Virus record (IMG/VR): IMGVR_UViG_2563366854_000001
Coordinates: 1-22,290 of that record
Direction: 5' to 3' (one strand)
Length of the DNA stretch: 22,290 nt
DNA from: a virus
Taxonomy: Duplodnaviria; Heunggongvirae; Uroviricota; Caudoviricetes
The position numbers and the translations under genes were made by a program. The notes beneath the pieces are model-generated. The model saw nothing but the letters and a program-made list of their open reading frames with translations. It searched no databases and had not been told where the DNA came from. This document shows positions 1 to 22,290 of the stretch, piece by piece (position 1 is the stretch's first letter; every line of letters starts with the position of its first letter).

Positions 1-1164
1 TTACGCCTTCTTTATATCCTCCATAATTCCACAGTGGGACATATTTGGGACATTATCACCAAAAATGTCGTCTATTTTCCTTGCATGCTCTGTCAAATGA
101 TTAGGCGCAAGGTGAGCATACCTACGAACCATTTCTATGGACTCCCATCCGCCCATTTCCTGAAGCACAGATAATGGGACGCCTGACTGGATCAGCCAGC
201 TTGCCCAGGTGTGTCTGAGGTCATGGAAACGGAAATCTTCAATTCCTGCACGACGACAAGCTGATAGCCATGATGTCTTGCTGTCGATGCGCATCTTCCT
301 GACCGCAGGCGTTGATGTTCCATCTGCTCGCTTAGCCGCCTTGGTATGTACAAACACCCATTTGTGATGCTTGCCTATTTGATCACGCAACACTTTACAG
401 GCGGTATCGTTCAGCGCCACACCAATGGCGCGGTTTGATTTGCTCTCTTCTGGATTCACCCAGGCAACTCGTCGCTGCATGTCGATTTGTTGCCATTCCA
501 GATTTATGATGTTCGACTTTCTCAGACCAGTTGCCAGCGCAAACTTGACGACAGATTTCAGTGGTTCGGGGCACTCATCAATAAGGCGTTTTGCTTCCTC
601 CTTTTCCAGCCATCTGACTCGCTTGTTTCTGACCGCTGGTATCTTGATGACAGGCGCTTTTTCCAGCCACTTCCAGTCGCGTTCTGCAGCACGGAGAATG
701 GCCTTTATCATGGCAAGATGCTTTGCCTTTGTCTGAGTTGATACTGGCTTTGGTTCATAAACAGGCGGTTCTTTACCTTTCCTGATGGCGGCCTGAACTT
801 TCTGTTTCCATATTTCTTTCGTCTTTCTGTTATGCATTCTGCTTACAGCAGAGTAAATCTTTGCCTCCGAGATATCTTTAAGCCTTATACCCTCAAAATG
901 TTCAAGCCAGAACTCAATCCGGCTTTTATCTGAATCGAGAGATTTTTTATCAGCTTTTTCCTCAAGCCATCTTAGGCAGGCCTCTTCAAAAGTGACATCA
1001 GGTAAATCCCCTAGCTTTTCTACTCGCCAGAGTTCTGCTTTTCGCTTGTCGTGCAACTCCTGAGCTTGCCGCTTGTCCTTTGTGCCAAGAGATTCCTTAA
1101 TTCGTTTCCCGCCCGGGAGCGAATACGAGGCATACCATATTTCATTTCTGCGGAAGAGTGACAT
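1..1164 (-). CDS. int: Phage integrase, tyrosine recombinase family
   Basis: 387-aa ORF; C-terminal region carries the tyrosine-recombinase pattern (HDLRHTWAS...LGGW...RRYAH); start ATG at 1162-1164 preceded by AGGAAAG; sits at the prophage end next to an Xis-like gene. Confidence 0.9.
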
Positions 1165-8355: not shown

Positions 8356-8707
8356 ACAGTTTAACAACACACTACCGTCGCTCGCAACTGATTGCGCTTC
8401 CTGTACCGGGTGGAAAAGCGAAGGTGGAATATTGCTATGCAGTGAATGTACCAGGTGACAGGGAAATTGTAACCCACAGCTTTGCTGAGTGGGCTGTGGG
8501 TGATTTCAACCGGCAGAAGGAGACAGTCCTTTGCGACAAGTTAACCGCTGGTTCAAAGATCACTACGGAGTGCCCGTCAGAGTCATTCGTTGGGAACCGG
8601 AAACACAACGTGTTATCTACCTCCGCGAAGGCTATGAGCATGAGTGCTTCAGCCCGCTCGAACAGTTTCGTCGTAAATTCAGGGAAATAGAGGTCGGTCA
8701 TGAGCAC
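8352..8707 (+). pseudogene. Small gene with apparent frame discontinuity (frameshifted or mis-sequenced)
   Basis: N-terminal part is in the frame starting at ATG 8352 (ATGA-coupled to the upstream stop); the protein-like C-terminal part ([49 protein letters not shown]) is in another frame from about 8504 and ends at 8707, overlapping the O-like start. The frame-0 tail after about 8530 is Ser-rich junk. Confidence 0.45.
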
Positions 8708-9641
8708 TAAATTAACCGGCTATGTATGGGATGGTTGCGCTGCATCAGGCATGAAATTATCCAGCGTGGCAATTATGGCCCGCCTGGCTGATTTCAGTAA
8801 TGACGAAGGTGTGTGCTGGCCATCAATTGAAACCATTGCCCGCCAGATTGGCGCGGGGATGAGTACCGTCAGAACGGCTATCGCACGGCTGGAAGCAGAA
8901 GGCTGGTTAACGCGTAGGGCGCGTCGCCAGGGTAACCGCAATGCGTCGAATGTTTATCAGCTTAACGTTGCGAAGCTTCAGGCAGCGGCATTTTCTCAAC
9001 TGTCAGATTCTGACCCGTCAAAATCTGACGCATCAAAATCTGACCCGTCAAAATTTGATGCGTCGAAATCTGGCAAAAAAGCGGGTTTTCACCCGTCAGA
9101 ATCTGGTGGGGATCCGTCAGTAAAATCAAAACATGATCCGTCAGATAAAAAAACTTCTCGTCCGGACGCTTCGCAACCGGACACGCAGACGGCTGAACAG
9201 GATTTTTTAACTCGCCATCCTGATGCGGTTGTATTCAGCCCTAAAAAGCGCCAGTGGGGGACGCAGGATGATTTGACCTGCGCACAGTGGCTCTGGAAAA
9301 AAATCATCGCCCTGTACGAGCATGCCGCCGAATGTGACGGCGAGGTGGTTCGTCCCAAAGAACCGAACTGGATAGCCTGGGCAAACGAAATTCGCCTGAT
9401 GTGTGTGCAGGATGGTCGTACTCATAAACAAATCTGCGAGATGTACAGCCGCGTCAGTCGCGATCCGTTCTGGTGCCGTAACGTGCTCAGCCCGTCGAAG
9501 CTGCGGGAAAAATGGGATGAGCTTTCCCTGCGCTTATCGCCGTCCGTCAGCACGTACACCGAAAAACGCGAAGACCCGTACTTCAAAGCCAGTTACGACA
9601 ACGTGGACTACAGCCAGATCCCGGCAGGATTCAGGGGGTGA
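8700..9641 (+). CDS. Replication initiator, lambda O-like
   Basis: 313 aa; N-terminal HTH-like region; internal low-complexity linker encoded by tandem DNA repeats (iterons), as in lambda O; GAGG 6 nt upstream of ATG. Confidence 0.75.
   Translation: MSTKLTGYVWDGCAASGMKLSSVAIMARLADFSNDEGVCWPSIETIARQIGAGMSTVRTAIARLEAEGWLTRRARRQGNRNASNVYQLNVAKLQAAAFSQLSDSDPSKSDASKSDPSKFDASKSGKKAGFHPSESGGDPSVKSKHDPSDKKTSRPDASQPDTQTAEQDFLTRHPDAVVFSPKKRQWGTQDDLTCAQWLWKKIIALYEHAAECDGEVVRPKEPNWIAWANEIRLMCVQDGRTHKQICEMYSRVSRDPFWCRNVLSPSKLREKWDELSLRLSPSVSTYTEKREDPYFKASYDNVDYSQIPAGFRG
9000..9150. repeat. Iteron array: candidate phage origin of replication inside the O-like gene
   Basis: At least five tandem units of about 15 bp (consensus near CCGTCAAAATCTGAC) at 9001-9074, further degenerate copies to about 9145, followed by an A-rich tract (GATAAAAAAA). 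Confidence 0.6.
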
Positions 9642-9643
9642 TC

Positions 9644-10132
9644 ATGAGTCTTTTGAATGACGTTCAGAAATTCATTGAAGCCCATCCGGGGTGTACTTCC
9701 GGAGACATTGCGGATGCTTTTGCAGGTTACTCACGACAGCGCGTTCTGCAGTCAGCAAGCAAGTTACGTCAGAGTGGGCGTGTGGCTCACCGTTGTGAAG
9801 GGGATACACGCAGACATTTCCCGCGGCTGACTGAGATACCGCAGGAGCCGGAACCGCAACCAGTTCGTGAATCCAGACCTGTGCGCAATTTCTATGTCGG
9901 CACTAACGATCCCCGGGTGATTTTGTGCCTGACCCGCCAGGCGGAAGAACTGGAGTCCAGGGGCTTATACCGTCGTGCTGCAACGGTGTGGATGGCGGCA
10001 TTCCGTGAAAGCCACTCCCAGCAAGAGCGAAACAATTTTCTTGCGCGTCGTGAGCGGTGTTTACGGAAAAGCAGCAAGCGCGCTGTATCGGGTGAAGAGT
10101 GGTATCTGTCAGGGAATTACGTGGGGGCTTAA
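9644..10132 (+). CDS. Hypothetical protein, possible PerC-like regulator
   Basis: ATG 9644 overlaps the O-like stop (TGATCATGA); segment ESRGLYRRAATVWMAAF resembles the PerC-family motif (from memory, low certainty). Confidence 0.45.
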   Translation: MSLLNDVQKFIEAHPGCTSGDIADAFAGYSRQRVLQSASKLRQSGRVAHRCEGDTRRHFPRLTEIPQEPEPQPVRESRPVRNFYVGTNDPRVILCLTRQAEELESRGLYRRAATVWMAAFRESHSQQERNNFLARRERCLRKSSKRAVSGEEWYLSGNYVGA

Positions 10133-10458
10133 TGACGACGTTAACTCAATGCCAGCAGCAGGTGCTGGATATGCTGATTTCTTACCAGAAAGAACGTGGC
10201 TTCCCGCCAACCAATCAGGAGGTGGCTACCATGCTGGGATACCGTTCAGTGAATGCAGCGGTGGAGCATCTTCGCGCACTGGAGAAAAAAGGCGTCATCA
10301 CGATAAAGCGTGGCGTGGCCCGGGGCATCACGCTTCATACCGCGGTGAAGGACGACGACAGCGAGGTGGCCGGGATTATCCGCGCACTGCTTGCTGGTGA
10401 GGAAAACGCCAGGCTGCGTGCAGCCCACTGGTTACATGAGAGGGGGCTGAAAGTATGA
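10132..10458 (+). CDS. LexA DNA-binding-domain-like protein lacking the S24 peptidase domain
   Basis: MTTLTQCQQQVLDML...GFPPTNQEVATMLGYRSVNAAVEHLRALEKKGVI...RGI aligns by eye with the LexA N-terminal winged HTH (LTARQQEVFDLI...[36 protein letters not shown]); only 108 aa; TAATG coupling with the upstream gene. Confidence 0.75.
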   Translation: MTTLTQCQQQVLDMLISYQKERGFPPTNQEVATMLGYRSVNAAVEHLRALEKKGVITIKRGVARGITLHTAVKDDDSEVAGIIRALLAGEENARLRAAHWLHERGLKV

Positions 10459-10844
10459 AGCTGATTCTGCCTTTTCCACCCAGCGTGAACACCTACTGGC
10501 GACACCCCAACAAAGTGGCATTTGCTGGTAAGAGCCTGATAAGCGCGGCGGGGCGAAAATTCCAGAGTGCGGCGTGCACAGCAATAGTTGAGCAGTTACG
10601 TCGTCTGCCGAAACCAACGTCGGCACCTGCTTCAGTGGAGATCGTGTTGTTTCCTCCGGATAACCGGATCCGCGATCTGGACAACTATAACAAGGCGCTG
10701 TTTGACGCCCTGACCCACGCGGGTGTGTGGGAAGACGACAGCCAGGTGAAAAGAATGCTGGTGGAGTGGGGACCGGTTATCCCGGAAGGGAAGGTCGAGA
10801 TCACTATCAGTAAGTACGAGAAAACGGCGGGTGCAGCCGCCTGA
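10455..10844 (+). CDS. rusA: RusA-family Holliday junction resolvase
   Basis: 129 aa; LPFPPSVNTYWRH and DLDNYNKALFDALT motifs characteristic of RusA; ATGA overlap with the upstream stop. Confidence 0.9.
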   Translation: MKLILPFPPSVNTYWRHPNKVAFAGKSLISAAGRKFQSAACTAIVEQLRRLPKPTSAPASVEIVLFPPDNRIRDLDNYNKALFDALTHAGVWEDDSQVKRMLVEWGPVIPEGKVEITISKYEKTAGAAA

Positions 10845-10863: not shown

Positions 10864-11661
10864 ATGAATAATCTGATGGTCATTGATGGTATTGAAGTTC
10901 GTCGTGATGCTTATGGGCGTTACAGCCTGAACGATCTGCACAGGGCTGCCGGTTCTCTGGATAAGCATAAGCCTGCATTCTGGCTCCGCAATGAGCAAAC
11001 TGAACGTTTAATAAGCGAGTTGCAGATTTGCAACTCGGTCAATATAGAGCCAGTTAACGTTATTCGTGGCGGAAATAACCAGGGGACGTATGTCTGCAAA
11101 GAACTGGTGTATGCCTATGCAATGTGGATCAGCCCGTCATTCCATCTGAAGGTGATCCGTACTTTCGATATGGTAACCAGCGCATCGGAAAAATTATCCG
11201 GGCAGGCTGCTGACAAGATGCAGGCTGGCGTGATTCTGCTGGACTTTATGCGCCGGGAGTTAAACCTGTCTAACTCTTCAGTGCTTGGTGCCTGTCAGAA
11301 ACTCCAGGAGGCTGTTGGCTTACCGAATCTGGCACCGCGCTATGCCATTGATGCTCCTGCTGACGCGCCTGATGGCTCAAGCCGTCCCACGCTGTCACTG
11401 AGTGCACTGCTGAAGCAGTATGGTATCCGCCTGACAGCTAATCAGGCATATCACCAGATGGTGAAGCTGGGGATCGTCGAGCAGCGCGAACGATACAGCC
11501 GTACCGCGATTAACAACATCAAAAAATTCTGGTCGCTGACAGCGAAAGGCTGCATGTTCGGCAAGAACATCACCAGTCCCGCAAATCCGCGCGAGACGCA
11601 GCCGCATTTCTTCGAATCCCGATTCCCTGAGCTGTTAAAGCTGCTCGATACCGTTCATTGA
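10864..11661 (+). CDS. KilA-N domain protein (Bro/antirepressor-like)
   Basis: Start at internal Met MNNLMVIDG (GAGGAGAAACGAAGT-ATG); N-terminal KilA-N-like pattern (YSLNDLHRAAG ... GTYVCKELVYAYAMWISPSFHLKVI). Confidence 0.75.
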   Translation: MNNLMVIDGIEVRRDAYGRYSLNDLHRAAGSLDKHKPAFWLRNEQTERLISELQICNSVNIEPVNVIRGGNNQGTYVCKELVYAYAMWISPSFHLKVIRTFDMVTSASEKLSGQAADKMQAGVILLDFMRRELNLSNSSVLGACQKLQEAVGLPNLAPRYAIDAPADAPDGSSRPTLSLSALLKQYGIRLTANQAYHQMVKLGIVEQRERYSRTAINNIKKFWSLTAKGCMFGKNITSPANPRETQPHFFESRFPELLKLLDTVH

Positions 11662-11662
11662 G

Positions 11663-12658
11663 GTGACCGTGAGAGCACTATTGACCCCTGAAATTGCCCC
11701 GCGTATGGGGATCGTATTGTTCAGGCCCGGTTCAGAGCTGATGCCCCTGTTTATGCAGGGGCGTGTACTGCTGGAGCCTGAGCCGGAGCATTATTCATCT
11801 TTCGCCAGTGGTGCCGTTCCCGCGGCATCACAACCGCTGGCGGATGATCCTGCCGTTCGGGCCGTGTTCCGTAATGAGGCAGTGATTCGTCGTGCTGGTG
11901 GGGTGGAATGTCTTGAAAGCTGGTTACTTCGTGAAAAAGGCTGCCAGTGGCCTCATTCCGACTGGCACAGCGAGAACATGACCACAATGCGACACGCGCC
12001 GGGCGCAATCCGTCTGTGCTGGCACTGCGATAATCAGTTACGTGATCAGTTCACGGAGCGGCTGGAATCAATGGCAACGGATAACTGTGCCCGTTGGGTG
12101 TTGTCTGTAGTCCGTCGGGATCTCGATTTTAATGATAACCATGCCGTGACAATGCCGGAACTGTGCTGGTGGCTGGTTCGTAATGACCTGGCGGATGCCT
12201 TACCGGAAAGCGCAGCCCGTAAGGCACTGAGATTACCGAAGTCTGTTTTGCCGTCTGTCACCCGGGAAAGTGACCTTGTGCCTTCGGTTCCTGCCACCAG
12301 CATTATCCAGGATAAAGCGAAAAAGGTGCTGGCGCTGAAAGTGGATCCGGAGTCGCCGGAGTCTTTTATGTTACGCCCCAAACGTCGTCGCTGGGTTAAT
12401 GAACAGTACACGCGCTGGGTTAAGACGCAGCCGTGTGCATGTTGTGGAAAGCCAGCTGATGATCCGCATCATCTGATAGGCCATGGTCAGGGTGGAATGG
12501 GTACAAAAGCGCATGACCTTTTTGTGCTGCCTTTGTGCAGAAAACACCACGACGAACTGCATGCGGATACCGTGGCATTTGAAGAGAAGTATGGCTCCCA
12601 GCTGGAGCTGATATTTCGTTTTATCGATCGCGCACTGGCGATTGGTGTGCTGGCCTGA
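11663..12658 (+). CDS. HNH-motif phage protein (DUF968-like)
   Basis: C-terminal [21 protein letters not shown]...[10 protein letters not shown] is Cys/His HNH-like; start uncertain (GTG 11663 or downstream ATG 11705). Confidence 0.65.
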
Positions 12659-12675
12659 TTTTGTGGAGAAAGTTA

Positions 12676-13059
12676 ATGCGTGATATTCAGATGGTTCTTG
12701 AACGTTGGGGAGCGTGGGCGGCTAATAATCATGAAGATGTGGCCTGGTCGTCCATTGCCGCCGGTTTTAAGGGATTAATTCCTTCAAAAGTAAAATCTCG
12801 CCCGCATTGTTGTGACGATGACGCGATGATCATTTGCGGGTGCATGGCCCGTCTGAAAAAGAACAACAGCGATTTACACGATTTATTAGTAGATTATTAT
12901 GTATGTGGTATGACATTCATGTCACTGGCAAGTAAGCATTGCTGCTCGGATGGTTATATCGGGAAAAGGTTACAGAAGGCTGAGGGCATAATTGAAGGGA
13001 TGTTAATGGCATTAGATATCCGGTTAGATATGGATATCGTTGCTAATAATTCTAATTGA
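12676..13059 (+). CDS. Q: Late-gene antiterminator Q
   Basis: Start at [22 protein letters not shown] (GGAGA-N7-ATG); Q-family-like sequence with Cys-rich zinc-binding region; sits upstream of a hairpin terminator and the lysis cassette. Confidence 0.8.
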
Positions 13060-13197
13060 TATGCAATTGTTTACTAAAAGTTATTAAAAATGGGGCGTGG
13101 AAACGCCCCCAAAATAAAGGGTAATATATAACAGAAGGTTTATATAGTAAGAAGCAAGGTAGTGCTTCTAAAGGAAGTGGCTTGAGGGCTCCACTTA

Positions 13198-13245
13198 TAT
13201 GTTGCGGAGGCAAAGCCTCCCGCAACATATCTTTTTCGTAAGTCA
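13198..13245 (+). terminator. Strong rho-independent terminator (tR'-like) downstream of Q
   Basis: ATATGTTGCGGAGGC-AAA-GCCTCCCGCAACATAT followed by CTTTTTCG. A second hairpin GGGGCGT-GGAA-ACGCCCC at 13092-13109 has a U-tract on the opposite strand and may terminate the porin transcript. Confidence 0.6.
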
Positions 13246-13247
13246 GA

Positions 13248-14330
13248 TTAGAACTGATAAACCAGACCTACAGCGACGATGTCGTCGGTATCAATACCAG
13301 CTGTTTTGGTAAACTTACTATCGTCAATTAAGTTGATTTTGTAATCAACAAAAGTAGACATGTTTTTATTAAAGTAGTAAGTAGCACCGACATCGACATA
13401 CTTGACTAAGTCTCGGTCACCATGAACACCAAGGTCTTTACCTTTTGACTGAAGGTAAGCAACAGATGGGCGCAGACCGAAGTCAAACTGATATTGTGCT
13501 ACTGCTTCAAAGTTTTGTGCTTTGTTTGCAATATGGTTATTACCAAAAACGGTCATATTCTGAGTTTCAGAATATGTGGTAGCCAGATAGATATTGTTCG
13601 CATCATATTTCAGGCCTGCAGCCCATACTTCCGCATTTTTGCCGGAGGCATTGAATTTGCTCTTACCATAGGCGACCTGACCGTCAGTGCGATCTGATTT
13701 AGCATAGGTTGCACCCACGCCGAATCCTTCATACTCATAAGTAGTGGAGAAACCGAAACCATCACCATTGGCTTCAGTTACGTCAGTGCGGTCATTTTTA
13801 CCCTGATACTGAGCAGCAAAGTTCAGGCCATCGACCAGACCAAAGAAGTCGTTGTTACGATAAGTTGCAACACCAGTAGTGCGACCAGTCATGAACACAT
13901 CTGTTTGGGTCCAGGTATCACCACCGAATTCTGGCAGAACGTCAGTCCACGCACCGATGTCGTATGCTACACCGTAGTTACGGCCGTAATCGATGGAGCC
14001 GTAATCACCAAATTTCAGGCCTGCAAATGCAAGACGGGTTTTGTCTTTGGAAGAACCTTGAGATTCAGCACGGTTGCCTTTGAATTCATATTCCCACTGA
14101 CCGAAACCAGTCAGTTGATCGTTGATTTGGGTTTCACCTTTGAAGCCAAGACGGGCATAAGTAGTATCACCATCATCTGCATCATTAGAGGAGAAGTAGT
14201 GCTTGGCATTAACTTTCCCGTATAGATCCAGCTTGTTACTGTCTTTATTATAAATTTCAGCTGCCTGAGCAGACATCGCCATCAGTACTGATGCAGCTAC
14301 AGCAGAAATTGCCACTGTTAATTTTTTCAT
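13248..14330 (-). CDS. nmpC: Outer-membrane general porin, OmpC/NmpC family (lysogenic-conversion moron)
   Basis: Start at internal Met [23 protein letters not shown] (signal peptide); porin hallmarks AEIYNKD...LDLYGKV and C-terminal GLVYQF; lies between Q and the holin, as nmpC does in DLP12-type prophages. Confidence 0.85.
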
Positions 14331-14756
14331 TGTACGCCCTTTTTTTGAACTATTATTAAAAAATGATGTCACTGCGCGATAAATATTCATCTAATCAATG
14401 TGATTATTTCAAGATGTAAGTTTTAGTTTCTCATTTAATTTGTGAAGTAGATCTCTATTTTTATCTGAACCTTTTCTATCTAATCCTATTCATGGCTCTT
14501 GTCTGAACAAAAATAAATCTATTAGCTAATTTATATTAATGGCACTTATTTATAAGTGCTCTATAATTCTTTAGCTTAATTTAAACAAACTAAAAATAAC
14601 ATCGGAAATTATTAACTGATTATTTGTTGAAGTTTTCTTATGTATTTGTGGTGGTGTTTTGAACACTCGGTGGCATTCTCACAAATATCATTTAGTAGTT
14701 TACGTACGTAAAAAATTGGTTATGCTGTTAAGAGTGGTTACTTCGTCACACAGCTT

Positions 14757-14790
14757 AAACCCGCCGTCGAGCGGGTTTTTCCATTTTTTG
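14757..14790 (+). terminator. Hairpin with U-tract upstream of the lysis cassette
   Basis: AAACCCGC-CGTCGA-GCGGGTTTTT followed by CCATTTTTT. Confidence 0.4.
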
Positions 14791-14918
14791 AGTCTCGATA
14801 TTAGCTGATAACCCAATACCTGAGTTATTCACTGACTCCGAATCTGTTACGTTTCTGCCTTTATTGCGATACGTAATATCCCCTTAATTTACACCCGCTT
14901 TGTCTGCGAGGTGGGGTT

Positions 14919-15134
14919 ATGAAATCCATGGATAAGTTAACAACGGGTGTCGCCTATGGCACCTCAGCAGGTAGTGCCGGTTACTGGTTTTTACAGCTGC
15001 TCGATAAAGTCACGCCCTCACAGTGGGCAGCAATAGGTGTGCTGGGTAGCCTGGTATTTGGCCTGCTGACGTACCTGACAAACCTTTATTTCAAGATTAA
15101 AGAAGATAAGCGCAAGGCTGCGAGAGGTGAATAA
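14919..15134 (+). CDS. Class II holin, phage-21 S-type pinholin with dual-start motif
   Basis: 71 aa, [29 protein letters not shown]...; Met1-Lys-Ser-Met4 dual start; two TM segments; charged C-terminus. Confidence 0.9.
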
Positions 15135-15631
15135 TGCCTCCATCATTACGAAAAGCCGTTGCTGCTGCTATTGGTGGCGGAGCAATTGCTATAGCATCAG
15201 TGTTAATCACTGGCCCAAGTGGTAACGATGGTCTGGAAGGTGTCAGCTACATACCATACAAAGATATTGTTGGTGTATGGACTGTATGTCACGGGCATAC
15301 AGGAAAAGACATCATGCTCGGTAAAACGTATACCAAAGCAGAATGCAAAGCCCTCCTGAATAAAGACCTTGCCACGGTCGCCAGACAAATTAACCCGTAC
15401 ATCAAAGTCGATATACCGGAAACAATGCGCGGCGCTCTTTACTCATTCGTTTACAACGTGGGTGCTGGCAATTTCAGAACATCGACGCTTCTTCGCAAAA
15501 TAAACCAGGGCGATATCAAAGGCGCATGTGATCAGCTACGTCGCTGGACATATGCTGGCGGTAAGCAATGGAAAGGTCTCATGACTCGTCGTGAGATTGA
15601 GCGTGAAATCTGTTTGTGGGGTCAGCAATGA
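15134..15631 (+). CDS. SAR endolysin (lysozyme with N-terminal signal-anchor-release domain)
   Basis: 165 aa; Gly/Ala-rich weakly hydrophobic N-terminus ([20 protein letters not shown]) followed by a lysozyme-like domain; TAATG coupling to the holin. Confidence 0.9.
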
Positions 15632-16089
15632 ACAGAGTAACCGCGATTATCTCCGCTCTGGTTATCTGCATCATCGTCTGCCTGTCATGGGCTGTTAATC
15701 ATTACCGTGATAACGCCATTACCTACAAAGCCCAGCGCGACAAAAATGCCAGAGAACTGAAGCTGGCGAACGCGGCAATTACTGACATGCAGATGCGTCA
15801 GCGTGATGTTGCTGCGCTCGATGCAAAATACACGAAGGAGTTAGCTGATGCGAAAGCTGAAAATGATGCTCTGCGTGATGATGTTGCCGCTGGTCGTCGT
15901 CGGTTGCACATCAAAGCAGTCTGTCAGTCAGTGCGTGAAGCCACCACCGCCTCCGGCGTGGATAATGCAGCCTCCCCCCGACTGGCAGACACCGCTGAAC
16001 GGGATTATTTCACCCTCAGAGAGAGGCTGATCACTATGCAAAAACAACTGGAAGGAACCCAGAAGTATATTAATGAGCAGTGCAGATAG
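15628..16089 (+). CDS. Rz-type i-spanin
   Basis: ATGA overlap with the endolysin stop; N-terminal TM helix followed by coiled-coil-like periplasmic domain. Confidence 0.8.
15848..16030 (+). CDS. Rz1-type o-spanin lipoprotein, embedded in Rz in the +1 frame
   Basis: 60-aa ORF wholly inside Rz; lipobox LVVVGC; proline-rich mature region ([15 protein letters not shown]). Confidence 0.75.
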
Positions 16090-16120
16090 AGCTGCCCATA
16101 TCGATGGGCAACTCATGCAA

Positions 16121-16414
16121 TTATTGTGAGCAATACACACGCGCTTCCAGCGGAGTATAAATGCCTAAAGTAATAAAACCGAGAAATCCATTTACGAATG
16201 TTTGCTGGGTTTCTGTTTTAACAACATTTTCTGCGCCGCCACAAATTTTGGCTGCATCAACAGTTTTCTCCTGTCCAATTCCCGAAACGAAGAAATGATG
16301 GGTGATGGTTTCCTTTGGTGTTACTGCTGTCGGTTTGTTTCCAACAGTAAACGTCTGTTGAGCACATCCTGTAATAAGCATTGCCAGAGCGGCAGAAAAC
16401 AACATTTTTTTCAT
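16121..16414 (-). CDS. bor: Bor-family outer-membrane lipoprotein (serum-resistance moron)
   Basis: Start at MKKMLFSAALAMLITGCAQQTF (lipobox); AGGA upstream; C-terminus ...GIYTPLEARVYCSQ matches lambda Bor closely. Confidence 0.9.
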   Translation of the reverse strand: MKKMLFSAALAMLITGCAQQTFTVGNKPTAVTPKETITHHFFVSGIGQEKTVDAAKICGGAENVVKTETQQTFVNGFLGFITLGIYTPLEARVYCSQ

Positions 16415-16775
16415 CTTATTATCCTGCATTGTTAAAAACGGCAGAATCCTATGTGACAACAATTAAACGATAGTTAAATGGATTGATGAAAATTAAAACT
16501 ATATAGGTGGATGCTCAGCCTATTGGAGGAGGGGGGGGCACTCAGAATCCTGTGGAATGAAATAAACCGCTCTATCTGTCCATTACCCTTTTAGCTGCGC
16601 TGTATCGTCGCCGTATTCCCGCATTAACCATGACCGTAGCCCGACGGGGAATTCCTTCTGCGTGAGTGTGCGGGAATAATCAAAAACGATGCACACCGGG
16701 TTTTACTGTGCTGACAGACGCAGGGTTACCCTCATAGTCGCTTTTCCGGTGCGATGGTGGAAGAAACCGGGATGT

Positions 16776-16970
16776 TCATCCATCATCACTTTGGATTGAT
16801 GTATATGCTCTCTTTTCTGACGTTAGTCTCCGACGGCAGGCTTCAATGACCCAGGCTGAGAAATTCCCAGACCCTTTTTGCTCAAGAGCGATGTTAATTT
16901 GTTCAATCATTTGGTTAGGAAAGCGGATGTTGCGGGTTGTTGTTCTGCGGGTTCTGTTCTTCGTTGACAT
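16776..16970 (-). CDS. Small YlcI-like protein
   Basis: 64-aa ORF MSTKNRTRRTTTRNIRFPNQMIEQINIALEQKGSGNFSAWVIEACRRRL; position after bor matches DLP12 ylcI (memory-based). Confidence 0.55.
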   Translation of the reverse strand: MSTKNRTRRTTTRNIRFPNQMIEQINIALEQKGSGNFSAWVIEACRRRLTSEKRAYTSIQSDDG

Positions 16971-17099
16971 GAGGTTGCCCCGTATTCAGTGTCGCTGATT
17001 TGTATTGTCTGAAGTTGTTTTTACGTTAAGTTGATGCAGATCAATTAATACGATACCTGCGTCATAATTGATTATTTGACGTGGTTTGATGGCGTAGAT

Positions 17100-17350
17100 G
17101 CACGTTGTGACATGTAGATGATAATTATTATCATTTTGCGGGTCCTTTCCGGCGATCCGACAGGTTACGGGGCGGCGACCTCGCGGGTTTTCGCTATTTA
17201 TGAAAAATTTCCGGTTTAAGGCGTATCCGTTCTTCTTCGTCATAACTTAATGTTTTTATTTAAAATACCCTCTGAAAAGAAAGGAAACGACAGGTGCTGA
17301 AAGCGAGCTTTTTGGCCTCTGTCGTTTCCTTTCTCTGTTTTTGTCCGTGG
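17100..17350. other. Lambda-type cos site (cosQ-cosN-cosB); cohesive-end sequence GGGCGGCGACCT at 17170-17181
   Basis: Sequence ...CGACAGGTTACG|GGGCGGCGACCTCGCGGGTTTTCGCTATTTATGAAAA... corresponds to the joined right and left ends of phage lambda, immediately upstream of Nu1. Confidence 0.85.
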
Positions 17351-17358
17351 AATGAACA

Positions 17359-17904
17359 ATGGAAGTCAACAAAAAGCAGCTGGCTGACATTTTCGGTGCG
17401 AGTATCCGTACCATTCAGAACTGGCAGGAACAGGGAATGCCCGTTCTGCGAGGCGGTGGCAAGGGTAATGAGGTGCTTTATGACTCTGCCGCCGTCATAA
17501 AATGGTATGCCGAAAGGGATGCTGAAATTGAGAACGAAAAGCTGCGCCGGGAGGTTGAAGAACTGCGGCAGGCCAGCGAGGCAGATCTCCAGCCAGGAAC
17601 TATTGAGTACGAACGCCATCGACTTACGCGTGCGCAGGCCGACGCACAGGAACTGAAGAATGCCAGAGACTCCGCTGAAGTGGTGGAAACCGCATTCTGT
17701 ACTTTCGTGCTGTCGCGGATCGCAGGTGAAATTGCCAGTATTCTCGACGGGATCCCCCTGTCGGTGCAGCGGCGTTTTCCGGAACTGGAAAACCGACATG
17801 TTGATTTCCTGAAACGGGATATCATCAAAGCCATGAACAAAGCAGCCGCGCTGGATGAACTGATACCGGGGTTGCTGAGTGAATATATCGAACAGTCAGG
17901 TTAA
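17359..17904 (+). CDS. nu1: Terminase small subunit Nu1
   Basis: 181 aa, MEVNKKQLADIFGASIRTIQNWQEQGMPV...; essentially lambda Nu1. Confidence 0.95.
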   Translation: MEVNKKQLADIFGASIRTIQNWQEQGMPVLRGGGKGNEVLYDSAAVIKWYAERDAEIENEKLRREVEELRQASEADLQPGTIEYERHRLTRAQADAQELKNARDSAEVVETAFCTFVLSRIAGEIASILDGIPLSVQRRFPELENRHVDFLKRDIIKAMNKAAALDELIPGLLSEYIEQSG

Positions 17905-19936
17905 CAGGCTGCGGCATTTTGTCCGCGCCGGGCTTCGCTCACTGTTCAGGCCGGAGCCACAGACCGCCGTTGAATGGGCGGATGCCAGTTACTATCTCCC
18001 GAAAGAATCCGCATACCAGGAAGGGCGCTGGGAAACACTGCCCTTTCAGCGGGCCATCATGAATGCGATGGGCAGTGACTACATCCGCGAGGTGAATGTG
18101 GTGAAGTCTGCCCGTGTTGGTTATTCCAAAATGCTGCTGGGTGTTTATGCCTACTTCATAGAGCATAAGCAGCGCAACACCCTTATCTGGTTGCCGACGG
18201 ATGGTGATGCCGAGAACTTTATGAAAACCCACGTTGAGCCGACTATTCGTGATATTCCGTCGCTGCTGGCGCTGGCCCCGTGGTATGGCAAAAAGCACCG
18301 GGATAACACGCTCACCATGAAGCGTTTCACCAATGGGCGTGGCTTCTGGTGCCTGGGCGGTAAAGCGGCAAAAAACTACCGTGAAAAGTCAGTGGATGTG
18401 GCGGGTTATGATGAACTTGCTGCCTTTGATGAGGATATTGAACAGGAAGGCTCTCCGACGTTCCTGGGCGATAAGCGTATTGAAGGCTCGGTCTGGCCAA
18501 AGTCCATCCGTGGCTCCACGCCCAAAGTGAGAGGCACCTGCCAGATTGAGCGTGCAGCCAGTGAATCCCCGCATTTTATGCGTTTTCATGTTGCCTGCCC
18601 GCACTGTGGGGAGGAGCAGTACCTTAAATTTGGCGATAAAGAGACGCCGTTTGGCCTCAAATGGACGCCGGATGATCCCTCCAGCGTGTTTTATCTCTGC
18701 GAGCATAATGCCTGCGTCATCCGTCAGCAGGAGCTGGACTTTACTGATGCCCGTTATATCTGCGAAAAGACCGGGATCTGGACCCGTGATGGCATTCTCT
18801 GGTTTTCGTCATCCGGTGAAGAGATTGAGCCACCGGACAGTGTGACCTTTCACATCTGGACGGCGTACAGCCCGTTCACCACCTGGGTGCAGATTGTCAA
18901 AGACTGGATGAAGACGAAAGGGGATACGGGAAAACGTAAAACTTTCGTAAACACCACGCTCGGTGAGACGTGGGAGGCGAAAATCGGCGAACGTCCGGAT
19001 GCTGAAGTGATGGCAGAGCGGAAAGAGCATTATTCAGCGCCCGTTCCTGACCGTGTGGCTTACCTGACCGCCGGTATCGACTCCCAGCTGGACCGCTACG
19101 AAATGCGAGTATGGGGATGGGGGCCGGGTGAGGAAAGCTGGCTGATTGACCGGCAGATTATTATGGGCCGCCACGATGATGAACAGACGCTGCTGCGTGT
19201 GGATGAGGCCATCAATAAAACCTATACCCGCCGGAATGGTGCAGAAATGTCGGTATCCCGTATCTGCTGGGATACTGGCGGGATTGACCCGACCATTGTG
19301 TATGAACGCTCGAAAAAGCATGGGCTGTTCCGGGTGATCCCCATTAAAGGGGCATCCGTTTACGGAAAGCCGGTGGCCAGCATGCCACGTAAGCGAAACA
19401 AAAACGGGGTTTACCTTACCGAAATCGGTACGGATACCGCGAAAGAGCAGATTTATAACCGCTTCACACTGACGCCGGAAGGGGATGAACCGCTTCCCGG
19501 TGCCGTTCACTTCCCGAATAACCCGGATATTTTTGATCTGACCGAAGCGCAGCAGCTGACTGCTGAAGAGCAGGTCGAAAAATGGGGGGATGGCAGGAAA
19601 AAAATACTGTGGGACAGCAAAAAGCGACGCAATGAGGCGCTCGACTGCTTCGTTTATGCGCTGGCGGCGCTGCGCATCAGTATTTCCCGCTGGCAGCCGT
19701 ACTGGATGCACTGGAGAAGCATGACACCGGGGCGACGTTTTTTGATGGTCGCCCCGCTGTTTTTGATGAGGCGGATTTTCCGGCAGTTGCCGTTTATCTC
19801 ACCGGCGCTGAATACACGGGCGAAGAGCTGGACAGCGATACCTGGCAGGCGGAGCTGCATATCGAAGTTTTCCTGCCTGCTCAGGTGCCGGATTCAGAGC
19901 TGGATGCGTGGATGGAGTCCCGGATTTATCCGGTGA
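17879..19936 (+). pseudogene. A: Terminase large subunit A, 3'-truncated and fused out of frame to U
   Basis: Lambda-A-like through ...ALAALRISISRWQ (to about 19696), then continues as junk in the wrong frame of U-derived DNA until a stop at 19936. Confidence 0.85.
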
Positions 19937-20067
19937 TGAGTGATATCCCGGCACTGTCAGATTTGATCACCAGTATGGTGGCCAGCGGCTATGACTACCG
20001 GCGCGACGATGATGCGGGCCTGTGGAGTTCAGCCGATCTGACTTATGTCATTACCTATGAAATGTGA
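19697..20067 (+). pseudogene. U: Tail terminator U, 5'-truncated remnant with no own start
   Basis: Frame-1 translation from 19696 reads AVLDALEKHDTGATFFDGRPAVFDEADFP...LTYVITYEM*, lambda U minus its first few codons. Confidence 0.8.
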
Positions 20068-20074
20068 GGACGCT

Positions 20075-20815
20075 ATGCCTGTACCAAATCCTGTAATGCC
20101 GGTGAAAGGTGCCGGGACCACCCTGTGGGTTTATAAGGGGAGCGGTGACCCTTATGCGAATCCGCTTTCAGACGTTGACTGGTCGCGTCTTGCAAAAGTT
20201 AAAGACCTGACGCCCGGCGAACTGACCGCTGAGTCCTATGACGACAGCTATCTCGATGATGAAGATGCAGACTGGACTGCGACCGGGCAGGGGCAGAAAT
20301 CTGCCGGAGATACCAGCTTCACGCTGGCGTGGATGCCCGGAGAGCAGGGGCAGCAGGCGCTGCTGGCGTGGTTTAATGAAGGTGATACCCGTGCCTATAA
20401 AATCCGCTTCCCGAACGGCACGGTCGATGTGTTCCGTGGCTGGGTCAGCAGTATCGGTAAGGCGGTGACGGCGAAGGAAGTGATTACCCGCACGGTGAAG
20501 ATCACCAATGTGGGACGTCCGTCGATGGCAGAAGATCGCAGCACGGTGACGGCGACAACCGGCATGACGGTGACACCCGCCAGTGCTTCCGTAGTGAAAG
20601 GGCAGAGCACCACGCTGACCGTGGCATTCCAGCCGGAGGGCGCAACCGACAAGAGCTTCCGTGCGGTGTCTGCGGATAAAACAAAAGCCACCGTGTCGGT
20701 CAGTGGTATGACCATCACCGTGAACGGCGTTGCTGCAGGCAAGGTCAACATTCCGGTTGTATCCGGTAATGGTGAGTTTGCTGCGGTTGCAGAAATCACC
20801 GTCACCGCCAGTTAA
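20075..20815 (+). CDS. V: Major tail protein V
   Basis: Start at [22 protein letters not shown] (GAGGA upstream); near-identical to lambda V, including the C-terminal Ig-like region. Confidence 0.9.
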
Positions 20816-20830
20816 TCCGGAGAGTCAGCG

Positions 20831-21253
20831 ATGTTCCTGAAAACAGAATCATTTGAACATAACGGCGTGACCGTCACGCTTTCTGAACTGTCAGCCCTGC
20901 AGCGTATTGAGCATCTTGCCTGGTTGAAAGAGCAGGAAAAAAAGGCTGAATCCAGCGGCAACCTGCAGGTGTCTGTAGAGGATCTTATCAGAGGCGGGGC
21001 GTTTCTGGTGGCGATGTCTCTGTGGCATAACCATCCGCAGAAGACAAAGCTGCCGTCCATGAATGAAGCCATTACGCAGATTGAGCAGGAAGTGCTTACC
21101 ACCTGGCCCACGGAGGCAATTGCTCAGGCTGAAAACGTGGTGTTACGTCTGTCCGGAATGTCTGAGTTTGTGGTGAATAATGCCCCTGAACAGGCAGATG
21201 ACGCCGGGCCTGCAGAGCCTGTTTCTGCGGGAAAGTGTTCGACGGTGAGCTGA
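20831..21253 (+). CDS. G: Tail assembly chaperone G
   Basis: 140 aa, MFLKTESFEHNGVTVTLSELSALQRIEHL...; ends shortly after the slippery site. Confidence 0.9.
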   Translation: MFLKTESFEHNGVTVTLSELSALQRIEHLAWLKEQEKKAESSGNLQVSVEDLIRGGAFLVAMSLWHNHPQKTKLPSMNEAITQIEQEVLTTWPTEAIAQAENVVLRLSGMSEFVVNNAPEQADDAGPAEPVSAGKCSTVS

Positions 21254-21654
21254 GTTTTGCCCTGAAACTGGCGCGTGAGATGGGGCGACCCGACTGGCGC
21301 GCCATGCTTGCCGGGATGTCATCCACGGAGTATGCCGACTGGCACCGCTTTTACAGTACCCATTATTTTCATGATGTTCTGCTGGATATGCACTTTTCCG
21401 GGCTGACGTACACCGTACTCAGCCTGTTTTTCAGCGATCCGGATATGCATCCGCTGGATTTCAGTCTGCTGAACCGGTGTGAGGCTGACGAAGAGCCTGA
21501 AGATGATGTGCTGATGCAGAAAGCGGCAGGGCTTGCCGGAGGCGTCCGCTTTGACCCGGACGGGAATGAAGTTATCCCCGCTTCCCCGGATGTGACGGGC
21601 ATGACGGAGGATGACGTAATGCTGATGACAGTATCCGCTATAAACATTCAGTAG
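20831..21654 (+). CDS. G-T tail assembly chaperone fusion made by programmed -1 frameshift; T part C-terminally altered
   Basis: Slippery heptamer GGGAAAG at 21229-21235; the -1 frame continues as VFDGELSFALKLAREMGRPDW... (T domain); the last residues (…TVSAINIQ*) differ from what I recall of lambda T. Confidence 0.7.
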
Positions 21655-21986
21655 AGACGATAGATTCAGAGCACGCCGATCTCATTTTCAGGATGCGCCC
21701 TGTGTGGTACAGGTCGCAATGCGAAAATGACAGGCGTGACTGGGGATTCTATGGATTGATTGCCGAGGAAGTAGGAGAAATTGCCCCTCAGTTTGTTCAC
21801 TGGCGACCAGCCAACGAAGATGATGCACCGGAAACCATTTCCAGCAATGGCCTTGTTGCCGAAGGTGTAATGTACGAACGTCTGGTTGTTCCACTGATTC
21901 ACCATATCCAGAAACTGACTGAAAGAGTTGATGAACTTGAGTCAGAATTGAAGTTGTTATCAACTTCCCAAAGCGATATCGGATAA
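21637..21986 (+). pseudogene. Tail-fibre C-terminal remnant (intramolecular-chaperone / S74-like domain)
   Basis: Open frame without a credible start; WGFYGLIAEEVGEIAPQFV...NGLVAEGVMYERLVVPLIHHIQKLTERVDELESEL resembles the C-terminal chaperone domain of tail fibres and tailspikes. Confidence 0.5.
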
Positions 21987-21996
21987 AGGAGGAGTA

Positions 21997-22290
21997 ATGG
22001 ATATAACACCTTTTCTTCATGCGCTTTGTGCTGTGGCTGCGCAGGTAATGATTGGTCTTTTTGCCGGAAACTGGGTTTACGGGGCGATAGCCGGTTGTAC
22101 GTTCTTCATTGCGCGTGAACACACCCAGGCAGAATATCGCTGGATTGAAATGTTCGGGCATGGCAAGCGGATTAACATGCCGTGGTGGGGCGGTTTTGAT
22201 CCGCGTGTTTGGGATGTGGCAAGCCTGATAGATTTTGCTGTGCCGGTGGTGGCGTGTCTGCTGGTCTGGCTGTTGGTTAATCGTGGGTGA
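21997..22290 (+). CDS. Small hydrophobic membrane protein, function unknown
   Basis: 97 aa with strong SD (AAGGAGGAGTA-ATG); two predicted TM segments; stop is the last codon of the window. Confidence 0.6.
   Translation: MDITPFLHALCAVAAQVMIGLFAGNWVYGAIAGCTFFIAREHTQAEYRWIEMFGHGKRINMPWWGGFDPRVWDVASLIDFAVPVVACLLVWLLVNRG

Follow-up and report, generated by a model that had tools for sequence, protein, structure and literature searches.

The DLP12-type prophages are reported to be the most prevalent cryptic prophages of E. coli (PMC6379469). DLP12 of E. coli K-12 is a lambdoid prophage shorn of its morphogenesis genes by deletion. In K-12 a single, larger deletion joined the first 309 nt of the terminase gene A (aaaD) to tfaD (L007 17855-18598), and the tail genes U, V, G and T are missing.

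Intact sisters are found in the genomes of WP3-W18-ESBL-08 and NCTC86 and in the phages PhiR49_1, IdasGreatGrand and PhiR46_1. The complete, intact late operon was found in WP3-W18-ESBL-08 in the same order. In PhiR49_1, an isolated/induced phage, the order in the fibre region is J, lom, stf, a 93-aa gene, a 234-aa gene and a 97-aa gene.

Spontaneous deletion mutants of lambda and illegitimate recombination in E. coli provide a second point of comparison. These deletions are several kb in size and have a few bases of identity at their ends, and no recombinase site is involved. The lambda mutants were usually selected in the laboratory and are located in the non-essential b region, whereas in the element described here essential morphogenesis genes were lost from a resident prophage.

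The window, i.e. the whole analyzed stretch of 22,290 nt, contains a lambda-like prophage of the DLP12 family, which is integrated at argU of E. coli. Positions 21632 to 21635 are very probably (with a probability of roughly 93%) the scar of a spontaneous, microhomology-mediated deletion in this DLP12-family cryptic prophage. The features on which the analysis is based are the following:

1-1164, minus strand: intD integrase, with the stop codon exactly at the window start
17170-17181, plus strand: cos cohesive-end sequence GGGCGGCGACCT, exact motif; the alignment of the window to lambda begins at 17170 (lambda position 1)
17879-19936, plus strand: terminase large subunit A, truncated, 685-aa ORF (Pfam GpA_ATPase and GpA_nuclease)
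19693-19697, no strand: junction 1 (A-U), 5-bp microhomology GCAGC (three-way alignment to both NCTC86 sites; lambda 2529/8573)
19698-20067, plus strand: U remnant, residues 9-131, start codon absent (Pfam Phage_tail_U, profile positions 8-130 of 130)
20075-20815, plus strand: V, major tail tube protein, intact, 246 aa (Pfam Phage_TTP_12 and Big_2)
20831-21253, plus strand: G, tail assembly chaperone, intact, 140 aa (Pfam Phage_TAC_2, PF06894, E = 3.7e-53, full length)
21229-21235, plus strand: slippery heptamer GGGAAAG for the -1 frameshift from G to G-T (motif match)
21235-21654, plus strand: T′ reading frame (translation; alignment to intact T and lambda T; Pfam Phage_tail_T, PF06223, E = 3.9e-14)
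21632-21635, no strand: junction 2, 4-bp microhomology TATC common to both parental sequences (three-way alignment and BLAST coordinates)
21636-21986, plus strand: tail-fibre pseudogene remnant, residues 119-234 of 234 (100% identity to NCTC86, L001 43804-44154)
21997-22290, plus strand: predicted membrane protein, 97 aa, intact, with AGGAGG upstream (phrog_1443, E = 1.5e-57, function unknown)

Gene content and boundaries of the element

Positions 1-1259 of the window match intD of E. coli K-12 MG1655 with an identity of 99.3%. The window ends before argU itself is reached; in NCTC86, the sequence equivalent to the intD end of the window is located 15 nt from the tRNA-Arg. At the other side, the 47-bp argU repeat (attR) was identified in the scaffold of E. 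coli KTE161 at the window-equivalent position 26738, followed by envY. The element has therefore the two features by which the DLP12 family is recognized, intD beside the argU tRNA-Arg gene and a repeat of the argU 3′-end at the far end. Both edges of the window coincide exactly with ends of coding sequences: intD stops at position 1, and the 97-aa gene stops at position 22290.

The gene order after intD is immunity/replication, Q, porin, lysis cassette, bor/iss, cos, Nu1, A, V, G and T. In the BLAST comparison with phage lambda, positions 17170-19697 of the window correspond to lambda 1-2529 and positions 19693-21635 to lambda 8573-10515. V was also called as a gene of 246 aa in the KTE161 scaffold and is collinear with lambda V. 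The Rfam scan of the whole window matched no family.

Two cargo genes are placed between Q and the packaging genes. The gene for an OmpC/NmpC-type porin (13248-14390, minus strand) is intact and uninterrupted, whereas it is disrupted by IS5 in K-12. The gene for a Bor/Iss serum-survival lipoprotein (about 16121-16414, minus strand) is intact as well.

Over the 9 kb past the window, the KTE161 scaffold (L002) is collinear with NCTC86 with an identity of 99.98%. The genes found there are a tfa remnant, a methyltransferase (ybcY homologue), a DinI remnant, a second tfa remnant, an alpha/beta hydrolase and ompT. The original prediction presupposed that a complete tail module does not follow just outside the window, and a tail module was indeed absent 3′ of the window in the 9 kb of the KTE161 scaffold. 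The att-bounded element runs 4.45 kb past the window (L002 11057-15550), which is beyond ompT, resulting in a total size of about 26.8 kb. As in DLP12 of K-12, ompT is cargo of the element.

The block Q-porin-lysis-bor-nohD (Nu1) is common to the element and to DLP12 of K-12, with an identity of 91-98%. In addition, both share a right arm consisting of a tfa remnant, the ybcY methyltransferase, tfaX, ompT and the 47-bp argU repeat. In contrast to the single deletion of K-12, the element has two deletions, which flank the segment U′-V-G-T′; 606 codons of A are kept, and the early region is different.

The element retains the integrase, immunity, replication, Q, the porin, lysis, bor/iss, cos-Nu1 and V-G. 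Since portal, capsid, tape measure, tail tip and fibres are missing and the terminase is truncated, no virions would be expected from this gene content. The element is thus probably unable to package DNA or to build heads and tails, and it can be regarded as a cryptic prophage.

The two deletion junctions

At the first junction, the alignment of A stops at lambda position 2529, which is within lambda A (711-2636). The head deletion that had been proposed before is confirmed: A is joined to U, and 6,048 bp are missing in comparison with NCTC86. The lost sequence comprises W, B, C, nu3, D, E, FI, FII and Z as well as the first 8 codons of U. The resulting A ORF consists of 606 of the 641 native codons, followed by 79 out-of-frame codons through the U remnant. 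In the frame of the U remnant, the ORF listing contained no ATG, GTG or TTG before position 19885, and the remnant is therefore without a usable start codon. In a public gene call, a 140-aa 'U' ORF was annotated from position 19645, where the codon is CTG.

The second junction was located within T. The homology of the G-T region to lambda and that to the intact sister prophages both end at position 21635 (lambda 10515), and in the BLAST search the window after 21635 had no match to lambda T-H. With positions 20800-22290 as megablast query, all top hits to phages and complete E. coli genomes ended at query position 836, which corresponds to position 21635 of the window. When the query started at 21600, the match resumed at 21632 with 100% identity, at a downstream site of the same prophages.

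In NCTC86 (L001), the left parental sequence ends at position 31628 (window 21635) and the right parental sequence begins at position 43800 (window 21632). The two flanks are contiguous with sites 12,175 bp apart, on the same strand and in the same order within one NCTC86 prophage. The right flank is 100% identical to NCTC86 over 659 bp, and the left flank has an identity of 98.4%. With each flank matching contiguous parental sequence at 98-100% identity, the junction is far beyond chance. Compared to the sisters WP3-W18-ESBL-08, NCTC86, PhiR49_1, IdasGreatGrand and PhiR46_1 together, the identity is 99.4-99.7% over positions 1-21635 and 96.7-100% over positions 21632-22290. The gene order is the same in all of them, but they have the blocks of head genes (6.0 kb) and tail genes (12.2 kb) that the element lacks.

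The left breakpoint is 34 nt short of the end of T, and the right one is at codons 117-118 of the 234-aa fibre gene. The genes gone in the 12,175-bp deletion are H (tape measure), M, L, K, I, J, lom, stf and the 93-aa gene, and in addition the first 117 codons of the 234-aa gene, which is annotated as 'tail fiber domain-containing'. In NCTC86 and WP3-W18-ESBL-08, stf in this interval encodes a side tail fibre of 798/799 aa. Tape measure, tail tip and baseplate genes had been described as missing. This holds for tape measure and tail tip, as H, M, L, K, I and J are absent, but not for a baseplate, since lambda has a tail tip and no baseplate.

The scan of positions 20800-22290 for promoters and terminators revealed nothing at the junction or 3′ of it. 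Three antisense ORFs over the junction (21369-21647, 21666-21905 and 21688-22161, minus strand) were rejected as spurious; they had no Pfam hits. Junction 2 is probably without a function of its own.

Products of T, the fibre gene and the 97-aa gene

The heptamer GGGAAAG, which is the slippery sequence of lambda G/GT (PMC3296357, Table 1), lies just ahead of the G stop codon (21251-21253). T is made solely as a G-T fusion through the -1 frameshift, and the domains Phage_TAC_2 (G) and Phage_tail_T were found in overlapping frames. The intact T (144 aa) ends with EGIAGGVRYG and has 4 substitutions compared to lambda T. In T′, 134 of the 144 native residues are followed by AINIQ and a stop codon, so that the final 10 residues are missing; the G-T frameshift product has the same 5 foreign residues at its end. 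In lambda, NCTC86 and WP3-W18-ESBL-08 the start of H overlaps the end of a full-length T; neither a full-length T nor H was found here.

The fibre remnant starts at residue 118/119, and its frame differs from that of T′. Upstream, the frame is shut by a TGA at 21612-21614, and the native start and residues 1-117 are deleted. The first in-frame start codon within the remnant is the ATG at 21693, followed by the GTG at 21702 and the TTG at 21756. Because of such internal starts, gene callers annotate ORFs of 94 or 76 aa. The source of the remnant is the small 234-aa gene two genes 3′ of stf and not stf itself.

The original prediction had been precise about the end of T. It placed the departure from lambda at about 21636 and the stop at 21654, and the lambda match ends at 21635 with the TAG at 21652-21654. 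The alignments to lambda and to fibre genes agree with it in that T is not intact and the next gene is not normally initiated. A fusion of T to a fibre remnant was found at the DNA level. As a protein it does not exist: a T-fibre fusion protein was ruled out by the different frames of the two parts. The sole chimeric product predicted for junction 2 is T with 5 junk residues, and the fusion would accordingly be one of DNA only.

For the DNA after T, a start-less C-terminal chaperone domain of a tail fibre had been proposed, and this was borne out by the deleted native start and a match to Peptidase_S74 (PF13884). The remnant scored 24.3 bits (E = 3.9e-5, profile positions 4-57 of 58), which is above the curated cut-off of 22 bits. 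The intact 234-aa protein reached 27.3 bits over profile positions 1-57. Furthermore, tail-fibre PHROGs were matched at their C-terminal ends (E = 2e-62 and 9e-21). In the PDB, the remnant matched the MyRF ICA domain and, with E = 4.9e-7, the C-terminus of an L-shaped tail fibre (8hqz).

ICA domains are found in endosialidases, the T5 L-shaped tail fibre and MyRF. They carry a catalytic dyad, with a Ser at the scissile bond and a Lys five residues on, and the fibre or spike segment is located covalently upstream in the same ORF, which has its own start. In the intact 234-aa protein, S116 and K121 align with S587(A) and K592 of MyRF and with S911 and K916 of endoNF, the dyad residues of the latter two being those given in PMC8326128. 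The remnant is similar to these domains in that it aligns from the fourth profile position to the end and has kept the Lys of the dyad (K121). It differs in that the catalytic Ser116 at the scissile bond is deleted, and no fibre shaft and no start codon of its own precede the domain. Judged by its alignment, the remnant comprises only the chaperone part, which is normally cleaved off after folding. It is predicted to be unable to work as an intramolecular chaperone, since Ser116, the fibre shaft and the start codon are gone.

The 97-aa gene, for which the AGGAGG provides a strong ribosome-binding site, was left untouched by the tail deletion. Its product had no Pfam hit. The gene likewise follows the fibre gene in NCTC86, WP3-W18-ESBL-08 and phage PhiR49_1, and many lambdoid phages, phage 21 and Lambda_2E9 among them, have it conserved behind their fibre genes. 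In KTE213, the pair of remnant and 97-aa gene adjoins a second complete cassette.

Occurrence and origin of the deletions

The identical junction 2 was found in four independent assemblies, GCA_000351985.1 (KTE161), GCA_012537815.1, GCA_024427605.1 and Logan SRR640037. All four carry both junctions and are 99.96-100% identical to the window. Positions 11235-22290 of the window are 100% identical to the KTE161 scaffold KB732936.1, and the contig of Logan SRR640037 recurs in 7 samples.

Neither junction was detected in 5,426 complete E. coli genomes with junction-spanning queries, and the 30-mer of junction 2 had 0 matches in IMG/VR, the GTDB representative genomes and the JGI metagenomes. In look-ups of exact proteins, from which the distribution was derived, T′ was found in 5 contigs, compared to 140-369 for the intact T alleles. 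The T′ junction is a genuine but rare allele. No intermediate with a single deletion was identified: every contig with the exact A::U fusion protein also has T′, as far as exact protein matches are concerned.

Random deletions were simulated on the parental prophage sequence, and the length of the overlap was scored. The probability of an overlap of at least 4 bp was 0.018 for junction 2, and that of at least 5 bp was 0.006 for junction 1; about 2% of random junctions would thus have a 4-bp overlap by chance. Within 500 bp on each side of both sites, the best homology between the parental flanks was at most 11 nt and off-register. No IS ends, repeats or att sequences were found at the join of the tail deletion. 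Junction 2 thus has a few bp of identity at the join and no long repeat, IS or att site.

The overlaps of 4 and 5 bp point to illegitimate recombination at short homologies, by slippage or end joining. Such an event would have joined two sites having just TATC in common, with replication slippage or microhomology-mediated end joining as the likely routes. About 12.2 kb would have been taken out in the tail event, and the head genes would have been taken out with a similar scar between A and U. The scar is compatible with slippage, end joining and Red/RecET-type short-homology recombination alike.

Several other explanations were considered, all of them with a low probability. The least improbable is that the U′-V-G-T′ island and the chaperone fragment are kept by selection instead of being neutral remains, either as a reservoir from which superinfecting lambdoid phages could recombine or as part of a mobilisable element that bears cos and depends on a helper. 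V and G are intact, cos and Nu1 are present, and defective prophages are reported as donors of DNA to temperate phages (PMC3945230). Against this, the exact T′ protein is rare (5 contigs vs. 140-369 with intact alleles). Moreover, there is no signal of purifying selection, because all carriers found are nearly identical (99.96-100%). Packaging of the lambda type covers a range of about 38-51 kb. With about 26.8 kb, a single copy of the element falls below this range and a dimer exceeds it. It is just as improbable that the doubly deleted element is helper-dependent and mobilised or rescued by co-resident lambdoid phages, with selection on the V-G-T′ island. If this were true, it would be packaged in trans, or V, G or fibre-chaperone sequence would be donated by recombination.

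A deletion caused by an IS, a site-specific recombinase or homologous recombination at repeated sequences is slightly less probable again. IS elements do occur in this prophage family: V of NCTC86 contains IS66, and in GCA_900448635.1 a member of the IS3 family is inserted in the small fibre gene. However, an IS which causes an adjacent deletion normally stays at the scar, while at junction 2 neither an IS nor an inverted repeat end nor an att-like site is present and the flanks are parental up to TATC. A repeat of more than 11 nt was not found within 500 bp of either parental site.

That two contigs were mis-joined in assembly or scaffolding, and that the strain does possess the tail genes, is highly improbable. 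It would fit the lack of the junction 30-mer in the 5,426 complete E. coli genomes, IMG/VR, the GTDB representatives and the JGI metagenomes, but the junction is the same base for base in the four independent assemblies, which include the Logan assembly from raw reads (7 samples). In addition, there is no N-gap at the join, the 4-bp overlap is far below an assembler k-mer, and a second scar is located on the same contigs. Hardly worth retaining is an exchange of modules, with the right arm coming from another phage by mosaic recombination and the tail genes replaced instead of deleted: lambdoid tail-fibre regions are highly mosaic and the 97-aa gene and fibre cassette occurs in several prophage types, but the right flank matches the same NCTC86 prophage further downstream with 100% identity and is collinear to attR, and no other tail genes are present in the window or downstream.

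With the deletion by short homology as the preferred explanation, the element is a case of ordinary prophage decay and one more member of a well-known kind. It provides a base-resolved example of decay through two short-homology deletions. Its importance beyond annotation is little and no new question is opened; for annotation, the T gene and the fibre fragment should be marked as pseudogenes.

DLP12 of K-12, the prophages of NCTC86 and Nissle 1917 and the intact one of WP3-W18-ESBL-08 represent one family at one site with different, independent routes of decay. In the NCTC86 prophage (L001 19116-34217), V is interrupted by IS66 and both A and H are frameshifted. Nissle 1917 shows a deletion of its own, which runs from A across the capsid gene E to U. 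The 234-aa Peptidase_S74 gene was found to be independently broken elsewhere, by the IS3-family insertion in GCA_900448635.1, and it is present as split ORFs in three metagenome/Logan contigs. This fibre gene seems to be hit frequently when such prophages decay.
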